The notes beneath the pieces are model-generated. The model made no database searches, had not been told where the DNA came from, and saw nothing but the letters and a program-made list of their open reading frames with translations. A program made the position numbers and the translations under genes. From an uncultured Sangeribacter sp. (lineage in GTDB: Bacteria; Bacteroidota; Bacteroidia; Bacteroidales; Muribaculaceae), in the NCBI GenBank assembly GCA_964456155.1, contig CAYVZJ010000001.1:8660-72659 (forward strand): a stretch of 64,000 nucleotides of DNA, written 5' to 3'. Positions 5,320 through 64,000 of the stretch are shown one piece after another (position 1 is the first letter of the stretch; every line of letters starts with the position of its first letter).

Positions 5320-5381
5320 ACAAATTTTCTGTACATCACGTACAGAAAATTTGTTTTGTTGAGATATTATTATTAACTTTG
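5320..5381 (+). promoter_or_regulatory. perfect 15-bp inverted repeat followed by, and overlapping, a predicted promoter of the ATPase gene
   Basis: ACAAATTTTCTGTAC (5320-5334), loop atcac, GTACAGAAAATTTGT (5340-5354), then TTTGTT. A TTTG at 5350-5353 lies 20 nt upstream of TAACTTTG (5374-5381). The ATG is at 5401. Confidence 0.45.
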
Positions 5382-7795: not shown

Positions 7796-8195
7796 ACTTT
7801 GGCCTCAAGATGAGAGACTTTTCTCTAAAATTGAGAAAGAACAAATTGCAGAATCTGAACACCACTTCTTCCAAGAGATGCGAAGAAAGATGTTAGACGA
7901 GAATGCCCCATGGCCTGAGACTTTAGTATGGGAGCACGATAACCCGGACCACTTGTATTTATTACGTCAGGGGTACGATGAGTTTATGCTTGGGAAAGGC
8001 ACGTCACGACAAGAATGGCAAGCCACAGAGATTCATACTATGAATCTTTCAGATGCGTTGGCAATCAATCTCAAAGAAGCAAAACTTCTTGATCGAGATA
8101 TAACCTTTTTACAATGGCTCAGGGAAAATGAATTCTCGTGTGTGAAATATAATCATCAGAATGACGGTAATGTAAATTTAGTTAAACATGGGTGA
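7779..8195 (+). CDS. hypothetical protein
   Basis: 138-aa ORF with an ATG start and a 17-nt overlap with the DUF4417 gene. No family was recognised. Confidence 0.5.
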   Translation: MTHENKLWPQDERLFSKIEKEQIAESEHHFFQEMRRKMLDENAPWPETLVWEHDNPDHLYLLRQGYDEFMLGKGTSRQEWQATEIHTMNLSDALAINLKEAKLLDRDITFLQWLRENEFSCVKYNHQNDGNVNLVKHG

Positions 8196-29787: not shown

Positions 29788-32700
29788 TTATTCCACGAGA
29801 ATCTTTATGGCACTGCCTTCTACCGAGATTATATATATGCCCTTGTGTAGCGAGAGGGTCTCGGTGTCAGATCCGGCGGTGAAGCTTCTTATCACTTTGC
29901 CGTCTTCAGAACAGATGATGACCTTCTTTCCGGCGGCGTTGGCAATCATCACACCTTCGGCTGTCGAGGAGACAGAGAAGTCGGGATTGCTGACAGAGCC
30001 AACGTGATTGGTAATCCATCCGTTTCTTGTATCGAGTGCGAAGCTCTGCGATGCTTTATCGGAAGCGTAGGCGGCTGATATTTCAATATCACGTGCAGAG
30101 ACGTTGTCACCACCTACCATTACATTGAACAGGGGTTCAGATGAAACAGCGAACACCGAGTTATTGAGGTCGTAGATCACCACTCTGATCGTGCGGTCGT
30201 CGATACGTCGTGTTCTGAATGTATGTCCGGCGGCGCGGCGTCCGGCCGTGACGTCCTTGAGCGTAAAGCCAGCCGGCACGGTGATATCAGCCTGAAGAGC
30301 TACATATTCCACACTGTTGTCGAGTGAGACAGGGAATGTGGCGATACCGCGTGAGACAGCGGGTGTGAGTCCGATCACGAGTGCATCGCCCGGATTGTCG
30401 GCGGATGCCTTGCGGGGAGCATGATGCGCTGATGATTGCTGTGCAGGGGCATTAAGAATGATCTTCACGGCCGCGGATGCATCGGATACCGAGATGTCAT
30501 CATCCTTGTTGACGTCTGCGCCCGTGTAATAGAATCTGTTCCATTCCGTCTCACTGTCGAAGTCGGTACGGTTGGTCTGCCACCAGTTGATCAGCACTCC
30601 GGGATTTTGAATAGCGTAGTTGGCGATGTTGACGGCGTCCGAGATATCCAGACGTCCGTCCCAGTTGGCGTCGGCCAGCTGAGGATATACATCAAGGTCG
30701 CAATCATGATAGTAGTGTTGGTCAGTCTCAACCTTAATGTGGGTCGGTCCGACAGCATTGATATGTACGGTGCCGTCATGAGCCGGATCCGGAGTGGCCA
30801 CCACATTATTGAATGCTTTCCATGTCATGATCTGTCCATCCAGAGGCATAATGGAGGCAAAAGTGAATGTGCTTCCCGGAACGTATACCGGCATTTCGGC
30901 TCTTGTGGGCTGTGTGACGCTGATGCCCGGCTCAATTCTGTGTGCGTGCACATTCCAGAGATCCCTGTATGCGTCAAGACACTTTGCCTGAACGAATATC
31001 TTGCAGTGGGGCTCTGTCAGATTACCTTCTCCCAGCATTTTCGGGATTTTCTCCGTATATACCTTGATGGTGGAAAGCACCTCGCAATCATCAAAGGCAT
31101 TCTCGCCGATCTCCTGCAGTGACTTGGGCAGTGAAGCAATCTGCAGTTTCTGGCAATAATACATCGCCTCTCTACCGATTTTCTCCACGCCTTCAGGAAT
31201 GTTGATGGTCTCGAGCTCGATGCAATTTTTCAGTGCATAGTCATCGATAAGGCGCAGTTTCCAGTTTTCAGAGCGTTCGAAAGCACGTAGATGGCGGCAG
31301 TCCATCAATGATCCCATACACAATTCCTGTATATTGTCGTGCATACGTATCGAGTAGAGTCCGCGGCAATCTTTCAGTACCTCGGGGTTGAGGCGGGTGA
31401 CAAGTGGCGGCACTTCAAAGAAGGTCAATGAATAGCAGTTGGCAAAAGCGCGTTCTCCCATGTTGGTGATAGACTGGGGCAGGTTGATCTCAGGGAGGTT
31501 CTTGCATCCGGAGAATGCCTCCTGTCCGATGTCGTACACACTTTCGGGTATATGGATGCCTACGAGTGTGAGGTCATCTTCGAAAGCGTCGTTGCCGATT
31601 CTTATCACTTTGTATGATAGACCGTAATACGGGCTTTCTTCATCTATATTCTTCACATATTCAGGCACGATATAAGATATGGTATCCGTAGCCTGCACGG
31701 CCGGCCCGGCCACTTCGCAGTATGGGACGGGCTTATTGCTGAGCACCCTGAAACGAAGGCCGTTCTTTTCCTCGAGCACCCTCTCGAGATGCACGAGGGT
31801 ATCGTCTTTGGCTTCGATTTTATAGAAAAGCGCCCAGGGTGTTTTCCCTTTTATATCCTCGAGGAGAGCATTCGGAGCCTTTACAACCGACTTCTTGCTG
31901 GAATACACCCTGGATGAGAACATACCCTCGTCAAAGGATTCCGGTTGCGCCGCAAGATATGTCACATTGAAAGCGCTGTCGCATTCCGCGAACATGCGGC
32001 TACCCTTTGTTAATGATTCGGAAATGGATATCTCCATCACGTCCTTGCATCCATAAAAGGCTCCGTCTCCGATAGTCGTGATGCCCTCGGGGAGATCAAT
32101 CCTGGTAAATTTAGCACACCCGTTGAAAGCCCTGTCGGGAATCGTCGTCATTGAGGCGGGGAAATTGATGGAGGGCAATTGCGTGCATCCGCTGAATGCG
32201 CCCTCTTCGAGCGAAGTCAGTGCCTCCGGCAAAGACACCGGTTGCGCGACGTTTTCATCCATCTGCCATACTATGGGATAATTCTCAAGCTGGCCGATAG
32301 TGTATCCGGATAAGGTGAATTCCCCTTCCCGGACGCAGTTGAGATTGTTGTTAAAACAATCCTTGAAGGCGTATGCACCGATGGAGGAGACGGCATTACC
32401 CATCTTTACTTCCATAAGGTATGTGCATCCGTCAAAAGCATGAGCGCCTATGGTAGTGAGCCTTTCCCCTAATGAGAGGGATGAAAGTCCGAAATTATAG
32501 AAGTGGAAGATGCTGGAATAGCTATGTTTGTGCTCGGCGTAAAACTTATTGGAATTGGTAGTACATCCATAAAAGGCATAATCGCCTATTGATTCTACGT
32601 TATCGGGAATATCTACAGAAAGGTTGAAATGCTCTTCCGGCTTAGTGTCGAATTGTGCTCCGGAAAAACATTTGTAGAATGTGTAGGGACTTATCTTTTT

Positions 32701-35700
32701 CAGGTTGGCTGGAAGTTTCAATGCCATTACCTTACTGCAATCCATGAAGGCGGAGTCTCCGATTTCCTCAATGGAGTCGGGGAGGTCAAGGAATGTAATC
32801 GGTGTGGATCTGAAGGCGCTCTGTCCGATAGTCTTCAACTTTTTGGGGAAAACTACGGATGAGAGATTCTGACAGTTTTCGAAAGCGTGGTCACCTATTG
32901 ACCTGAGTGTGGAAGGAAGTATGATATCGGTAATTCCCGGGAAATTAGCGAAAGCATAGGGTTCCAGAGTTCCTATGGCTGCCGATACGAGTTCATCAGA
33001 GGATAATTTAAGCTCCTCACAGTCGTTGAAAGCGAATGCTCCGATGCTTCCCGGCTCACCATCCCATGTATCTTCATCCACGGGCTCTACATCCCATAGT
33101 ATCCCACTGAGAAGTTTACACCCGTTGAATGCATATTCCCCAATCGAGACTGCAGGATTTTCAAAAACGATGGAGCGGAGTCCCGTCTCGCTGTCCCAAG
33201 AAGCGTAGTGAGTTAACTGATAGCAATTCTCGAAAGCGTGGGCACCGATACTTTTTACTGTTGACGGAATGACGACCTCTTCGAGTTTGATGCAGTTGGA
33301 GAAGGCATAGTCTCCGATAGCGGTACATTCTTCAGGAATTTCCACATCCACGATACCCGAGGGGGCGCGAAGCAGTGTTGTGCCTCCTTTATCCGTTAGA
33401 AATACATCCCCGTAGGAGTCATATCTCTTATTATCGATTACCAATATCGCCTCCATATTGTAGCATCCGGCAAACCAGTTGTCATTGATATCCTGATCAA
33501 AGTCGGAATTGATAATGACTTCCATAATACCGGTGCATCCGGCATATACAAAGTCTCCCATCTTGACATTGAAAAGTTCGGCATACGGCAGCGAGATACA
33601 GTTCTCAAAGGCTCGTGAGCCAATCTCTTCAAGTGATTCCGGGAACTCCACATATCCCAGCATGCCACATTCAGCGAATGCTCCTTCGTGTATTCTGGTC
33701 ACTCCTTCCGGGATGATGGCTTCCATGATATTGGGGAGCGCCGAAATAATCTCTGTTCCGTCTTCATTGTAGAACATTCCATCTTCTGCCAATCCTGATT
33801 CCTCGTCGTAGAGCTCGCTGAAATCTTCGAGATTATAGCATCCGGCGAAGGTTGTCCTGGCCGTTGAGTCTACATGTGAAAGTCCTTCTACCGAATAGAG
33901 TTCCGTACAGTAGGCGAATGCGTATTCGGGTAATTGCGTGATGCGGGCACCCAGAGAGGCGGATGGAAGATCCGTGCATCCCTGGAAGGCTCCGATTCCT
34001 ATTGTAGTGAGTGATTCAGGCAGTATAAGGTCTGCTGCTTCATAAGAATTAGACGAATCGTCTTCCGGACAACTCATGCAGTTAAGGAAGGCGTAGTCGC
34101 CGATTTCTTCCACTGAACTTCCAAACTCGATCTGTCCGAGGTGGCGGCAGCCATCGAAAGCATGTGCGCCGATTGACCGGACTTTGTCACCTATCTTGAC
34201 ATTAAGCAGACCGGTTAAAAATTTATGACCGCCGTCAACTCGCATATAACCATGTTCGAAACATTGTGCGAAAGCATAATCCCCGATGCTTTCAACACTT
34301 CCGGGAATGGTCAATGATTCAATGGACCGGCAACCGTAGAAAGCGTAATCACCGATTGAAGTTATCCTCTCCGGAAGTGCGCTGATGTCAATCCTTTCGC
34401 ATCCGTAGAAGGTGTAGGGATTCACTCTCTCCAGATTGGACGGCAAATCTATGTTCTTCAAATATATGCACATATAGAAAGCGGAATCTCCGATTTCAGT
34501 CACACTCCCCGGGATATTAATTGCGGTCAGGGCCGAACAATTCTTGAACAAGCCGCTGCTGATGGCGGACAGATGATCCGGAAGTTCGATCTCCTTGAGA
34601 TTGGTGCAATTCCTGAATGCTTCCGATCCTATCTTTCCCGCGGATCCGCTGATGAAGACCTTTTCGAGTTGCGGATTGTCGGCAAAAGCGTTAATTCCTA
34701 TGTCTGTACGATCGCTATGTAGCGTCACAGTGTTGGTATGCCATCTCTTCAATAAGTTATCGCATCTTATCTTGTAGTCCTCATCAAAGTTCTCTGGATT
34801 TGTAAAGTTCCAGCTATGCCACCAGTCGTCTTCGTTGTTGAATAAGGATCTGGGATAAAACCAGTTCAGGTCATCGAAATATATTCTTCCCGTATCCGCA
34901 ATCGGTGTGTTTGCGGACTCTCTCTTGAAGCAGTTGGAGAAGGCTCCCTCGCCGATGCTCTCTATTGATGAAGGGATATCGAGCCTCATCAGGTTGCAGT
35001 TGGCGAATGCATAATCCCCGATGCGTCCTTTCGGTGATGTGTCGGAGGGAGTATACTTGAGTCCATCGTAGTTGAGGTCTCCGCCTATGGTGATAAGTTC
35101 GAGAAACTTGCAGCCGGCGAAGGCGTAGTCGTCTATCACACATGACGGATTAGGTATCTTTACCTTACAGAGGCCGTAGCTGAGATGGTTGATTTCAAAA
35201 CAGCAGCCTTCGAATGCGTGCTTGCCGATATATTCCACTGAGGCCGGCAGCAACAGATAATCGTCCAGGCCGGTCAATCTTGCACCGTATCCGTACACGG
35301 GATAATCGACATTCCTGAGGAAATTTCTCACCGTCAGCGGCCACTGGTCTCCCTCCTTATAATATCCGGTGGTGAGGTTATGACAATTCTTGAAGGCAAA
35401 ATTGCCGATATGTTTCAGGTTTTCGGAAAATCTGATGAATCCGATATTGTGAAGCACCTTGTTGTCACACATATTGAAGGCGTAATCCTCTATTCGTGTG
35501 ATTGAGTCGCCCATTATGACTGACCGGATTTTCGGGCAGTCGTCGAAAGCCATCTTGCCGATTGCCGTCACTGTATATTCTATGCCGGTATCGGGGTCAA
35601 CCGCCGTGTCAGGTATCAGGATGTCCTCCAGTTCGAGATAAGCCGGGTCGAAGACCACCTCCGCTGTCTTATCCGCCTCGGAAGTGATATGATAGACGAG

Positions 35701-59793: not shown

Positions 59794-60127
59794 ATTTTTG
59801 TGAAAATCTATAGCAACTCGATACGGCAGGAATTTATGCACCCAGGCAGTAACTGCGTCTGCTGAAATGGCCTCTAATTTGCCAACTTAGACTTTTAATT
59901 TGCACTTTAGACTTTTAGGGGTGTAAAATAGTTTGTATATTATTGAAATACAATGTATTATAAAATGCGTTTTTAGACTTTTAAATTTGCACTTATGTGG
60001 GTTTGCGTATTATCTTTGCACAAAAATTTTAACTATAAAACACGCTTGATTATAAAAAAAGTAAAAAGTAACATCCTAATATACAAACATCATGACACCT
60101 TTCCTAATTATGAGAGGTTGACGCATA

Positions 60128-61690
60128 TTATGGTCGTTCGATGATGGGCGGTGTGAGTCGTGCCGTGTCGGTATTGAAATTGGCTGCTATGAGGTAGATC
60201 TGCTTGCCGCTTTCGGCCTCTGACAGCCAGTATTTCTTTTCGCGGATCTGCTCCATTGCGGCCTCGGAGGTGGAGTCTATCTTGAATTCAAAGATGTAGA
60301 TATATCTGTCGGTCTCCACACGCAGGTCAATGCGTCCGTCGGAGGTACGCACCTCCGTCTGACAGAAATATCCCATAAGAGTAAATAGCAGGTATATCAC
60401 ATTCTGAAAATGTGATTCTGACGCACCCTTCTCACTGTAAGGCACTGAGGCTACAAGGCTCTCCATCTTGCGCATGAACGTCTGAGGCTCGCCATCGCGG
60501 ACAGCCACCACGAAATCAGTGACGGCAAAACCCCTTGCCGAAGAAGTTATAGGGATGTATTTCTTCATCAGAAACTTTAGAAATCCCTGCTTTACCTCTT
60601 TGTTGGGATAATCAAGAGTATACCGGTCAAGATCTCGGTCATAATCCTTTATGGTGAGATATCCTGTCTGATAGAAAGCAGGCAGCGGATTTTCACTCAA
60701 GAGTCCCGCTGATTCGAGTTCTGACCTGTCAATGTATGAGGGAGAAATCTCTCTAAAATCGAGAAAATCATTTTCAAGCAGACGCACAAGATATGTTGGT
60801 GTGCCACTATCAAACCAGAAATCACTGATATCTGATTTTGCAAAAGCATTCACCAGACTGAAGGGATTATAAATATCCGGACAATTTTTGCAGAAATGGT
60901 ATCCATCATAATTTATTTTCAGTCGTTCCCGCGCCTCCACTACTGAAACATCCAGACATTGTGCCAATTTCTCAATGCCGGCTTTGAAGTATTGGTCCAC
61001 CTCTTCCGAAGTAATTCCGCAGATGGCAGAAAATTTCTGTTCAAAGGATATATCGCGGAGATTATTGAGGTCGGAGAAGATGGAGACTTTTGAAAAACGG
61101 GCCACCCCGGTGAGCATGGCCATCTCGATGTAAGGGTCCATCGTCTTGAGGTTGGCGTAGAAGGCCTTCAGCTGTGAGCGGTAGATATCGGCTAATTCCG
61201 GCCTGTAGATAGTGTTCAGCAGCGGCTTGTCATACTCGTCGACAAGTATCACCACCTTCTTGCCGGTTATCTCGTAAGCCCTACGGATGATGTAAGCAAA
61301 CCGTTCCTCCGGACTCCCTTCTTTGCGCTCATCGCCATAGAGCTCTTCCCATAATAAGAGATTAGTATGGAGATGCTCCGCTAATGATTTTTCATCCTTG
61401 TATTCCTTATTGTTGAGGTCAAGATGCAACACCGGATGAGGCTCCCAATCATCAGTAAGAGAGTCGAGAGCAAGCCCTTTGAAGAGATCGCGGCGCCCAA
61501 GATAGTATGCTTCGATAGTAGAGAGCAGCAGACTTTTGCCGAAACGGCGCGGACGCGACAGGAAATAGTATTTACCTTGCATCAATTCATAGACAAATGC
61601 AGTCTTATCCACATACGTATATCCACCTTCCCGAATTTCCTTGAAACTCTGGACACCCACGGGATATTTGATAATCTTCTTCTGCTCCAT
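60128..61690 (-). CDS. AAA-ATPase-like (DUF1703-type) N-domain plus PD-(D/E)XK nuclease C-domain protein
   Basis: YPVGVQSFKEIREGGYTYVDKTAF ... RPRRFGKSLL, with the C-terminal GRIDLRVETDRYIYIFEFKID. Confidence 0.8.
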   Translation of the reverse strand: MEQKKIIKYPVGVQSFKEIREGGYTYVDKTAFVYELMQGKYYFLSRPRRFGKSLLLSTIEAYYLGRRDLFKGLALDSLTDDWEPHPVLHLDLNNKEYKDEKSLAEHLHTNLLLWEELYGDERKEGSPEERFAYIIRRAYEITGKKVVILVDEYDKPLLNTIYRPELADIYRSQLKAFYANLKTMDPYIEMAMLTGVARFSKVSIFSDLNNLRDISFEQKFSAICGITSEEVDQYFKAGIEKLAQCLDVSVVEARERLKINYDGYHFCKNCPDIYNPFSLVNAFAKSDISDFWFDSGTPTYLVRLLENDFLDFREISPSYIDRSELESAGLLSENPLPAFYQTGYLTIKDYDRDLDRYTLDYPNKEVKQGFLKFLMKKYIPITSSARGFAVTDFVVAVRDGEPQTFMRKMESLVASVPYSEKGASESHFQNVIYLLFTLMGYFCQTEVRTSDGRIDLRVETDRYIYIFEFKIDSTSEAAMEQIREKKYWLSEAESGKQIYLIAANFNTDTARLTPPIIERP

Positions 61691-62007
61691 AACGCAAATG
61701 TAATAATAATCTCAGAGATTTACAAATCTGTCCATTTGCTCACCTTCTTTCTGTGTCTATTATTCTGCGTGCCAAGCGGCCACTTTCCAATAGGGGGATA
61801 ATTGGAGCGTTAAGAATTTTTTGTTGAAAAAATTCTTAGATTCAGGGATGGTTTTGTGGGGCAAAATCAGGGTGATTTTGAGTAAAATTCGGGTGTGACC
61901 GAAGTGTCGTTAGATGATTTTGGACAGTCGTTAGATAAGAGGGTTAAAATAATTTGGTAAAACATTAACAATCAAATAGATGACATTTTAAAATATTAGA
62001 TAATTAA

Positions 62008-62040
62008 TTTGGATGTTAGACGGTATTTTTGCTAACTTTG
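62008..62040 (+). promoter_or_regulatory. predicted promoter upstream of the small secreted-protein gene
   Basis: TTTG at 62008-62011, 21 nt of spacing, then TAACTTTG at 62033-62040. The ATG is at 62074. Confidence 0.4.
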
Positions 62041-62073
62041 CAAGTGAAATATTAATACAAATCCATCTAAAAA

Positions 62074-62439
62074 ATGAAGAAAATTATCTTAATTTTTTTG
62101 CTCGGTTTACTGTTGTTTCCAGCAATAAGTTTGCAAGCAGACACCACCTCTATTACGATTTTAATTAAAAAGAAAGGTGGGAGTGGAACCGGCTCAATAG
62201 GTCGCGGTCCTGTGATGGGGCTACCAGTCGTTATCACTCTAAACGATGACACCGGTGAACTGACCGTAGCTGCTCCTGAAAATGTGAATGGATGTGTTTA
62301 TGTGTATAGTGTGGACGGAATACAGGAAGCCTACTCTCCTGTGCTCAATGCAACGTTCACTCTTCCACAGACCGATGACATCCACATCATTTCGCTGCAA
62401 GGTAGCAACTGGTTTGGCGAAGCAAAGGTGGTATACTAA
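62074..62439 (+). CDS. small secreted protein of unknown function
   Basis: 121 aa with signal peptide MKKIILIFLLGLLLFPAISLQA. Confidence 0.6.
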   Translation: MKKIILIFLLGLLLFPAISLQADTTSITILIKKKGGSGTGSIGRGPVMGLPVVITLNDDTGELTVAAPENVNGCVYVYSVDGIQEAYSPVLNATFTLPQTDDIHIISLQGSNWFGEAKVVY

Positions 62440-62553
62440 TCACTTTATTACTAAACTGACATTTTAACTAAAATATAAATGGGTAATATTGCCCGAATCT
62501 TTAAATTTTTATAAAATGAATAAATTACTTAAAATTAAGGAGTTTATAACTCC

Positions 62554-62823
62554 TTGCCTGCTGATGTTGTAAACGAGAGTGGTAAGTTCACAACATTATC
62601 TGTCGGTGGTACGATAGAAAATTCGAGCAACGCAGGAAATTGTATGAATCCCGGTGATTGTGACTATTCCACAAATGATGGTGCATGTACCAACATGAGC
62701 CAATGTTATTTTTCCCGAAACGGATCAGATGGCAGTGGTAATTCGTGCAGAAATCCGACACGGCCTTCCAATCCAAATATATGTGGCGGTTCGAACATTG
62801 GTGGAATAACCGAGTGTCACTAA
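62554..62823 (+). CDS. Cys-rich RiPP precursor peptide candidate (GG-type leader, Asn/Gly/Ser/Cys-rich core)
   Basis: 89 codons. The leader-like part ends LSVGG. The core carries 7 Cys in an N/G/S/D/T-rich context (GNC, GDC, GAC, SQC, NSC, NIC, TEC). It lies 56 nt upstream of a radical SAM/SPASM gene. The in-frame start is only a TTG, and an ATG-initiated MNKLLKIKEFITP lies in another frame at 62516. Confidence 0.6.
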   Translation: MPADVVNESGKFTTLSVGGTIENSSNAGNCMNPGDCDYSTNDGACTNMSQCYFSRNGSDGSGNSCRNPTRPSNPNICGGSNIGGITECH

Positions 62824-62879
62824 AAGTAATCCTCACTAATTATGAGATGGGGGGAAACAAACAATGAGAACCTAAATCA

Positions 62880-64000
62880 ATGAAACTAAGCCGATATACA
62901 AGCATTTTGCCAATTGGGGAGAATACAAAGCTAATCTTTAGTGCCAGCACCCAGACATTTCATATATTGAAAGATTTAAATTGTGAGATTAATTACGATA
63001 ATCTTTTGCAATGGGCACAAGGCGATGAAGCTATTAGACAAGAATTGATAACATCAAAAGTGCTGATTGATGATGATGTAGACGAAGTCAAATGGTTAAA
63101 GGATAAGATTTTTAAAATTGACAATGATTCTTCATTATTTCAACTCAATATAAATCCCACACTTGATTGTAATTTCAGATGTTGGTATTGTTACGAAAAT
63201 CATCAGAAAGAGTCTCGTATGTCGGAACAGACTATTGAAAGTGTGATTCGTTTTGTTGAGAATACATTCAATCGGCTGACAGAACTCAAAGAATTTAATT
63301 TAGGTTTCTTTGGAGGCGAACCGCTATTGTGCTTTGATACAGTGGTCAAACCTTTAATACATAAATTGGGATTACTATGTAAGCAACATGATGTTTCTTT
63401 GGCAGTTAATTTTACATCAAACGGTAATTTAATAACAGAAGAAATAATTAAGTTTCTTAGAGGCTACAGAACGTCATTCCAAATTACTTTGGATGGAGAT
63501 ATGGAACATCATGACAAGACCCGGTTTTCAAAAGGTGGCGAAGGAAGTTTTTTAAAAATAATAGAAAACATCAAATTGCTTGTCTCCAATAGGATTTCTG
63601 TCATTGTCCGAATTAATTATACAAGACAGAATGCTGTCAGTATACAAAATATAACCAAATATTTCAGTGAACTTAATCCTGATTTAAGGGATTATATGGT
63701 ATTTGATTTCCACCGAGTATGGCAAGAGCGTGACAATCACCTTGACCAGACCGATGAAATAATTGGTGAAATCAAGAGTCAATTCCGCACAGAGGGTTTT
63801 AAGGTATCGGCTTTTATTTACCGAGATTTTACTCAATCATGCTATGGTGATAAAACAAATCATGTTCTTATAAATTATAACGGAGAAGTATTCGGTTGTA
63901 CTGCGCGGGATTTTATTTCTGCCAATAGAATTGGCATGCTCCATGCTACCGGTGAGATTGAATATGATCAGCCGGTATATGGAGATCGAGCAACAGCCAA
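62880..64000 (+). CDS. radical SAM/SPASM peptide maturase, 3' end beyond the window
   Basis: Open frame from ATG 62880 to the window edge, so it is not in the ORF track. CX3CX2C cluster CNFRCWYC, GGEPLL, and SPASM-type CX13GX4C in SCYGDKTNHVLINYNGEVFGC. Confidence 0.85.
   Translation, partial: MKLSRYTSILPIGENTKLIFSASTQTFHILKDLNCEINYDNLLQWAQGDEAIRQELITSKVLIDDDVDEVKWLKDKIFKIDNDSSLFQLNINPTLDCNFRCWYCYENHQKESRMSEQTIESVIRFVENTFNRLTELKEFNLGFFGGEPLLCFDTVVKPLIHKLGLLCKQHDVSLAVNFTSNGNLITEEIIKFLRGYRTSFQITLDGDMEHHDKTRFSKGGEGSFLKIIENIKLLVSNRISVIVRINYTRQNAVSIQNITKYFSELNPDLRDYMVFDFHRVWQERDNHLDQTDEIIGEIKSQFRTEGFKVSAFIYRDFTQSCYGDKTNHVLINYNGEVFGCTARDFISANRIGMLHATGEIEYDQPVYGDRATA

Follow-up and report, generated by a model that had tools for sequence, protein, structure and literature searches.

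Radical S-adenosylmethionine (SAM) enzymes acting on cysteine-rich peptides have been well studied in the Firmicutes; the Bacteroidota dominate gut communities, and to our knowledge almost nothing is characterized of the radical-SAM-modified cysteine-rich peptides of this phylum. The closest described systems are those of CteB (the maturase of the ranthipeptide thermocellin), PapB (freyrasin, a ranthipeptide with Cys-X3-Asp beta-thioethers), NxxcB of streptococci, CefB ("Cys-every-fifth"), and the GG-Bacteroidales peptides. We compare with them a locus at the end of a 64,000-nucleotide stretch of DNA (the window) from an uncultured Sangeribacter sp. of the Muribaculaceae (assembly GCA_964456155.1, contig CAYVZJ010000001.1), read from the open reading frame (ORF) list and the plus-strand sequence of positions 62074 to 64000. 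Our results make it likely that the region from 62008 to 64000 is the front of a four-gene cassette encoding a small secreted protein (ssp), a precursor peptide, a radical SAM/SPASM maturase, and a TonB-receptor-like outer-membrane barrel, the last lying past the window end; that the cassette belongs to a large family of ribosomally synthesized and posttranslationally modified peptides (RiPPs) of the Bacteroidota without experimental characterization; and that the window copy is reduced, mosaic, and probably nonproductive.

The maturase ORF begins at 62880 and passes the window edge, so that the window holds the first 373 of its 429 codons (62880 to 64000, plus strand), comprising an RRE-like (RiPP recognition element-like) N-terminal domain, the core with its CX3CX2C motif, and the first part of the SPASM domain. 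An earlier reading of this DNA (the original prediction) had placed three ORFs here, for ssp, precursor, and radical SAM protein, and had given the last a CX3CX2C motif (CNFRCWYC) and a CX13GX4C signature; all of this is borne out by the sequence. In the full 429-residue protein (P0001), DCNFRCWYC occupies residues 96 to 104 (PF04055, E = 1.3e-13) and is invariant in 23 homologues. The signature C321-X13-G-X4-C340 lies within the window part and is followed by C380, C383, C389, C393, and C407, and these seven SPASM cysteines are likewise invariant across the 23 homologues. The best match in the PDB is CteB (5WGG), both by sequence (E = 3e-16) and by fold (Foldseek E = 4e-17, TM 0.69). In the AlphaFold2 (AF2) model of the maturase (pLDDT 88.5), residues 1 to 81 form three strands and three helices, and the fold match spans the full length of the protein, including this domain, whose counterpart in CteB is a leader-recognition element; as modeled, the N-terminal domain thus appears RRE-like. 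The two systems share such a domain, a seven-cysteine SPASM domain, and a cysteine-rich substrate encoded adjacently, but the maturases are only 19% identical, the substrates of the present family are far longer and carry another leader, and its hosts are gram-negative and possess an outer-membrane protein (OMP) barrel and an exporter.

The strongest NCBIfam matches of the maturase are all RiPP radical SAM/SPASM maturases, although none reaches its curated cut-off: CefB (NF038107; 176 bits for the full protein and 156 bits for the window fragment, cut-off 600; best E = 9.5e-53 among the 23 members), TIGR04463 (150 bits, cut-off 525), the geopeptide maturase (142 bits, cut-off 400), the Clo7bot maturase (140 bits, cut-off 600), and the PapB family (NF047865; 125 bits, E = 4e-36, cut-off 340). 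None of the 23 family members reached the curated cut-off of any NCBIfam model. CefB and TIGR04463 are the top-scoring curated models for all 23 and match over the full length, N-terminal domain included, but the core cysteines of the present family are mostly 5 to 9 residues apart rather than a regular five. The SCIFF system is more distant, with the maturase at 81 bits against a cut-off of 425 (TIGR03974) and no match of the precursor to a model. The GG-Bacteroidales system, the class proposed in the original prediction, shares the Bacteroidales host, the Gly-Gly leader, the cysteine-rich variable core, and the radical SAM maturase, but the assignment does not hold: the maturase scores 54 to 56 bits against the TIGR04148 cut-off of 300, and the precursor has no match to TIGR04149 at E ≤ 1. 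That system also has a pseudo-radical-SAM partner; no second radical-SAM-like partner was found among the recurrent neighbors of the family, no search having been aimed at TIGR04150 itself. The broader claim, in which a RiPP maturase of the radical SAM/SPASM type has a cysteine-rich precursor with a double-glycine leader, is supported, the top matches being RiPP maturases at 150 to 176 bits as opposed to about 80 bits for anaerobic sulfatase maturases (anSMEs).

Homologues of the maturase are numerous (4810 at E ≤ 1e-20). A scan of species-representative genomes across the Bacteroidota gave 540 confirmed stretches, from which 80 loci were retained and their ORFs clustered with those of the window locus (81 loci in total, with 82 radical SAM family members, hence one such gene to a locus). 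The hosts of the 80 loci include Muribaculaceae, other Bacteroidales, Prevotella, Flavobacterium, Chryseobacterium, Mucilaginibacter, and Chitinophaga; the family is thus large and Bacteroidota-wide, and it has no curated model. A C39-peptidase ATP-binding cassette (ABC) exporter (PCAT) is encoded in 71 of the 81 loci, an outer-membrane barrel (PF14905) in 70, and the two together in 62; a tetratricopeptide repeat (TPR) protein with a membrane helix and a domain of the helix-turn-helix (HTH) type is found in 16 loci, and no further recurrent enzyme family was seen among the neighbors. Two barrel subfamilies can be told apart, with homology between them extending over 620 columns (hhalign E = 6e-32); neither a single sequence nor an 18-sequence profile matched any PDB sequence. 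Their likeness to TonB receptors is a prediction from PF14905, a weak PF00593 match in the OMP-B subfamily, and a plug-like N terminus seen by eye. One exporter of the family, in an NCBI metagenome contig (L094, 11888 to 14074), is split into two ORFs of 87 and 638 amino acids, and the corresponding exporter in Logan contigs (L095, 3986 to 6172) is a single ORF of 728 amino acids; the split may reflect a further frameshift polymorphism or a fault of assembly.

At least 64 of the 80 loci have cysteine-rich precursor-like ORFs no farther than 4.5 kb from the maturase and on its strand, with 90 matches near the maturase versus 17 anywhere else on either strand. Since so many homologous maturases adjoin homologous leader-core peptides, the pairing seen in the window is not due to chance. 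Family precursors are 85 to 130 amino acids long and have 5 to 10 core cysteines, so that the window precursor is not "unusually long," as had been claimed. Among 197 core cysteines of 32 Bacteroidales-type precursors, Asn occurs at position -4 in 45% and at +2 in 52% of cases (background, 16%), and Gly at -2 in 36% (background, 12%), giving an enriched family-wide motif, N-x-G-x-C-x-N; in the window core, Asn is found at -4 of five of the seven cysteines. The motif resembles PapB substrates in its repetitive core and fixed spacing between Cys and a polar residue of the acceptor type, Asn at -4 mirroring C-x3-D. It differs in that C-x3-D itself is not the core motif and in that the residue is Asn, not Asp, and stands upstream of the Cys, where it is a candidate acceptor only. 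A precedent for a Cys-Asn beta-thioether is NxxcB, a radical SAM enzyme that links the sulfur of Cys with the beta-carbon of an Asn upstream of it (PMC11002830). The comparison there is one of description, and the two systems differ: N-x2-C in streptococci stands against N-x3-C here, and the NxxC system has a single cross-link, is tied to quorum sensing, and belongs to the Firmicutes.

Genome mining of Bacteroidales has described radical-SAM-only clusters (BGC1 and BGC2) with PCAT, OMP, a TPR protein, and precursors with a GG motif, on bioinformatic grounds only (PMC10352776). Neither the text nor the supplements of that study hold sequence that could be matched, so that we compared these clusters by description; the study does not have the pairing of OMP and precursor, the secreted-protein partner, or the N-x-G-x-C-x-N core, all of which are features of the present family. 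No experimental study of this RiPP family came up in our literature searches. The pairing of barrel and precursor is seen in multi-precursor clusters, where barrel genes are multiplied alongside the precursors (paralogues 55 to 82% identical) and maturase and exporter are present once each. In five loci (L014, L029, L030, L033, and L041), three barrel paralogues (44 to 82% identical) alternate with two or three precursors whose leaders are near-identical and whose cores have diverged.

In the window, the precursor gene is most likely a recent loss-of-function allele, as judged from its sequence. The 89-codon ORF of the original prediction is present (62554 to 62823, plus strand), and its product is as described, MPADVVNESGKFTTLSVGG, a leader remainder that ends in TTLSVGG and leads into a core of 70 residues, seven of them Cys, in which N, G, S, D, T, and P abound. 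What had been missed is that this ORF starts with TTG, and that the conserved start, an ATG at 62517 in a different frame, has been cut off from it by a one-T deletion. Read from this ATG, the sequence begins MNKLLKIKEFI..., encoding the conserved N terminus of the leader, and the frame ends after the ATG and 18 codons (MNKLLKIKEFITPCLLML*; 62517 to 62573, plus strand), a remnant of the true precursor start. We aligned the window with 12 further copies of the locus from public assemblies (n = 13 independent copies). The copies are otherwise near-identical: the frameshift allele, TTTATAAC, is found in nine, including the window, and the intact allele, TTTATTAAC, in the other four, where one extra T between 62547 and 62548 yields an ATG-start precursor of 102 amino acids. 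In one contig of each allele (L009 and L013), the T indel is the sole difference over 8.1 kb. The 102-residue product begins MNKLLKIKEFINSLPADVVNESGKFTTLSVGG..., and the alignment matches the intact allele (MNKLLKIKEFINSLPADVV...) to the leader of the family.

In the closest relatives, the precursors start with ATG, are 102 and 89 to 98 amino acids long, and share the leader of the intact allele; one of them, MSKNNEISRFIASLGQDSSNESMDAIVLSVGG... (102 amino acids), is encoded beside a maturase 61% identical to that of the window. In an alignment of 24 leaders (consensus, M..K..RI..FIESL...S.LL...GG.N.G.C), F10 is invariant, I7 is at least 90% conserved, and the terminal GG, present in the window precursor as LSVGG, is conserved as well. 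A start at the TTG drops both I7 and F10, which is why we regard the gene as most likely inactivated, and the existence of an intact allele one base apart over 8.1 kb points to a recent deletion and not to an evolved start. The relatives were collected through genomic context, since a word-indexed protein search with the 102-residue precursor returned only itself. The 89-residue form, the 102-residue form, and five relatives matched no NCBIfam family at E ≤ 1, and the precursor had no Pfam match.

A second sign of reduction lies downstream, where the gene order was read from contigs identical to the window that extend 8.1 kb beyond it. Past 64000 follow, in order, the remainder of the maturase, a 700-residue barrel, a 777-residue C25 peptidase (best NCBIfam match PorU, 105 bits versus a cut-off of 420), a 384-residue BspA-type leucine-rich-repeat (LRR) protein, and a 51-residue membrane ORF with no Pfam or NCBIfam match. 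The C39 exporter that had been expected beyond 64000 is absent: tblastn found neither a PCAT nor a TPR-HTH regulator in the 64-kb window or the 8.1 kb downstream. Several BspA-type LRR coding stretches also occur within the window (31060 to 34596, minus strand; 20 to 37% identity in tblastn with the downstream LRR protein).

The C25 peptidase and LRR genes belong to a module of their own. In two other loci, reached through the ssp family (L102, 1 to 6261; L103, 269 to 6996), a TPR-HTH regulator with a membrane helix and ssp are followed by a strong terminator, a C25 peptidase, a BspA-type LRR protein, and a 44-residue membrane protein, with no precursor, maturase, or barrel; these C25 and LRR proteins and the small one have their homologues behind the window cassette. 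Given this RiPP-free module, the regulator-ssp pair stands at the head of two or more distinct cargo modules in the Muribaculaceae. We considered the C25 peptidase as a RiPP leader protease and rejected it as a family feature, since none of the 80 other loci carries one and since it belongs to its own module with the LRR and small membrane protein behind the regulator-ssp pair. A cassette that lacks its exporter and is joined to a module found alone elsewhere indicates that the window locus is mosaic. An AAA-ATPase/PD-(D/E)XK gene (60128 to 61690, minus strand) lies upstream, and copies of its 3' flank bound the locus: the flank at 60054 to 60133 of the window is repeated at 7851 to 8120 of L009 (about 70.3 to 70.6 kb), with the last 35 nucleotides 97% identical and about 190 extra bases in between. 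Direct repeats thus bracket about 10.4 kb of DNA, a unit made up of the AAA-ATPase gene, the RiPP cassette, C25, LRR, and the small ORF; the downstream flank copy is probably part of a second copy of this multicopy AAA-ATPase gene. On our combined results, the window copy is in all likelihood a mosaic cassette that was disabled recently.

Contigs from two NCBI metagenome assemblies (L001 and L002) carry sequence 91.5% identical to window positions 60870 to 63069 in which the maturase ORF ends after 63 to 64 codons; past the position equivalent to 63069, the sequence is unrelated and contains a minus-strand gene fragment resembling a DNA methyltransferase. This break is a second, independent natural disruption of the locus.

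For the intact family members, we propose that the RRE-like domain of the maturase would bind the conserved leader element I-x-x-F-I-x-S-L, and that the radical SAM core together with the seven-cysteine SPASM domain would cross-link the core cysteines as thioethers, probably to side-chain carbons of the Asn at -4 or +2, by analogy with CteB, PapB, and NxxcB. The C39-peptidase exporter, given its co-occurrence in 71 of 81 loci, would then cleave after the Gly-Gly and export the peptide. Because the barrel is duplicated together with the precursors, we infer for it a role in peptide handling at the outer membrane, where it might serve in export, reuptake, or immunity, and the membrane-anchored TPR-HTH protein is the likely regulator. 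In the window copy, the one-T deletion splits the start codon, together with I7 and F10, off from the core; exporter and regulator are missing, and the barrel gene is followed by the C25 peptidase, LRR, and small-membrane-protein module. More tentatively, and with the odds clearly against it at present, we speculate that the family may represent a new functional class of RiPPs, in which barrel genes multiply one-for-one with precursor cores while maturase and exporter stay single, and every barrel has one modified peptide as its dedicated ligand. The peptide might then be taken up or gated at the outer membrane, where it could mark self and non-self, signal, or carry a nutrient or metal, and would not simply be a released bacteriocin. 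The TPR-HTH protein and ssp might then be a reusable sensing front end that also drives the unrelated C25-protease/LRR module.

Several observations weigh against a disabled cassette. The frameshift allele is in the majority, which is odd for a plainly deleterious change, except if the cell can do without the peptide or pays a cost for it; both maturase and barrel are intact; the contig was followed only to about 8.1 kb downstream (about 70.5 kb); and a complete cluster with a PCAT, 55% identical (L094 to L097), occurs in the same samples as window-type copies and, with co-occurrence seen at the sample level, could supply functions in trans. The type of thioether and the acceptor residue are, moreover, analogies. 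From sequence alone, initiation at the TTG is possible, and a PCAT or regulator could act from elsewhere. These points lead to the strongest alternative, that the locus is fully functional, with the 89-residue TTG product and its 19-residue leader ending in LSVGG as the real substrate and a PCAT encoded elsewhere in the genome. Such a reading would draw on the ORF being open from the TTG at 62554, on the conservation of maturase and barrel (100% in 12 contigs), on the commoner allele and the paralogous cluster just named, and on the promoter motif 5' of the cassette. We nonetheless consider it unlikely, because the TTG product lacks the sole near-invariant positions of the leader and because all of the approximately 30 relatives examined start with ATG and carry the leader motif. 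The 18-codon ORF from the ATG at 62517, moreover, is still open and overlaps the TTG, and the intact allele is a single base away. TTG starts are also rare in Bacteroidetes.

A recently disabled gene also accounts better for the indel than does the view that this single base, in a hairpin loop, is an on/off switch of peptide production within a clonal population, which we regard as improbable. The site does form part of the loop between the perfect 8-bp arms of an inverted repeat, AAGGAGTT-TAT-AACTCCTT (62537 to 62555), the indel is all that distinguishes L009 from L013, and both alleles are found in runs of one study series. Yet the inverted repeat is not kept in the closest homologue (L099) and is therefore probably a coincidence of codons, even if it may favor indels; TT versus T is unlike the repeat tracts known for high-rate slippage; and each contig shows a single allele, with no within-sample mixture seen. 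Finally, the notion that the radical SAM enzyme is no peptide maturase but, for example, an anSME or a cofactor enzyme beside a chance small ORF, to which the SPASM fold shared with anSMEs and an anSME fold match (E about 4e-14) lend some color, is effectively refuted: the anSME models (TIGR03942, 80 bits against a cut-off of 349, and NF010321; 56 to 80 bits overall against cut-offs of 349 to 441) score below more than 10 RiPP maturase models, the RRE-like N-terminal domain aligns with CteB, no sulfatase is encoded in the locus, and precursor, PCAT, and OMP are conserved neighbors, so that neither a grouping with sulfatase maturases nor a small ORF unconserved beside homologous maturases, the outcomes that would have overturned the original prediction, was found.

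The membership of ssp, which the original prediction had left open, can be settled from its position in related loci. The gene (62074 to 62439, plus strand) is the front member of the cassette; its 121-residue product has a signal peptide, and the fold predicted for it is an Ig-like beta-sandwich. Homologues of 119 to 121 amino acids are encoded directly 5' of the precursor in three loci (L094, L100, and L101), and small secreted proteins at the same position in ten further loci are homologous to it (hhalign probability 95.4, E = 1.8e-8); on this comparison of sequences, ssp is a recurrent, conserved cassette member. The ssp family comprises 200 representative clusters, nearly all of 105 to 125 amino acids, and has no Pfam or NCBIfam model. 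The AF2 model of ssp is all-beta (pLDDT 74.6), and a fold search gave no significant PDB match (best E = 0.035). The model resembles C-terminal domains of type IX secretion (TM 0.62 to 0.70 on target), a likeness on which we do not rely. A 33-nucleotide exact repeat at the ssp stop codon, common to a paralogous cluster, causes the short-read contigs all to break at 62437 to 62440.

A Bacteroidetes-type promoter motif, TTTG-N21-TAACTTTG, was found by pattern match at 62008 to 62040 on the plus strand, 34 nucleotides 5' of the ssp gene start. The general pattern, TTTG-N19-21-TANNTTTG (TTTG-N19-21-TAnnTTTG), which we take to be the Bacteroidetes -33/-7 consensus, occurs 10 times in the window against 0.47 expected (at 5350, 9119, 25792, 36171, 45458, 52151, 58223, 59986, 61726, and 62008). 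This excess fits the Bacteroidales origin of the window, and the sites are candidate transcription starts for several genes. A sigma-70 promoter scan was set aside as not applicable to Bacteroidetes, and the TTG/TAnnTTTG pattern was used instead.

The base composition of the cassette also sets it apart, the G+C content falling from 0.478 (window positions 1 to 60000) to 0.33 to 0.44 over the cassette region. Low values (0.29 to 0.44) are likewise seen at about 6000 to 12000 in L094, at about 9000 to 13965 in L098, and at 61700 to 64000 in the window, covering the 3' part of the regulator gene, ssp, precursor, maturase, and barrel; the flanks of these stretches lie at 0.5 to 0.57, and the L094 exporter lies at 0.54. 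That the drop is confined to the cassette and spares the L094 exporter suggests that the four genes of the cassette are exchanged, or evolve, apart from the exporter.

As a caution for genome mining, the window copy would pass as a complete RiPP cluster by eye or with rule-based tools despite its frameshifted precursor and missing exporter, and expression work would be better served by the intact 102-residue allele. The value of the locus lies mainly in the features of its family and less in this disabled copy. It leads to a family of thousands in gut Muribaculaceae, Bacteroides, Prevotella, Flavobacterium, and Chryseobacterium for which there is no curated model, and which offers a leader usable for mining, a candidate Cys-Asn thioether motif, and, as an unusual obligatory partner, a barrel that is duplicated together with its peptides.

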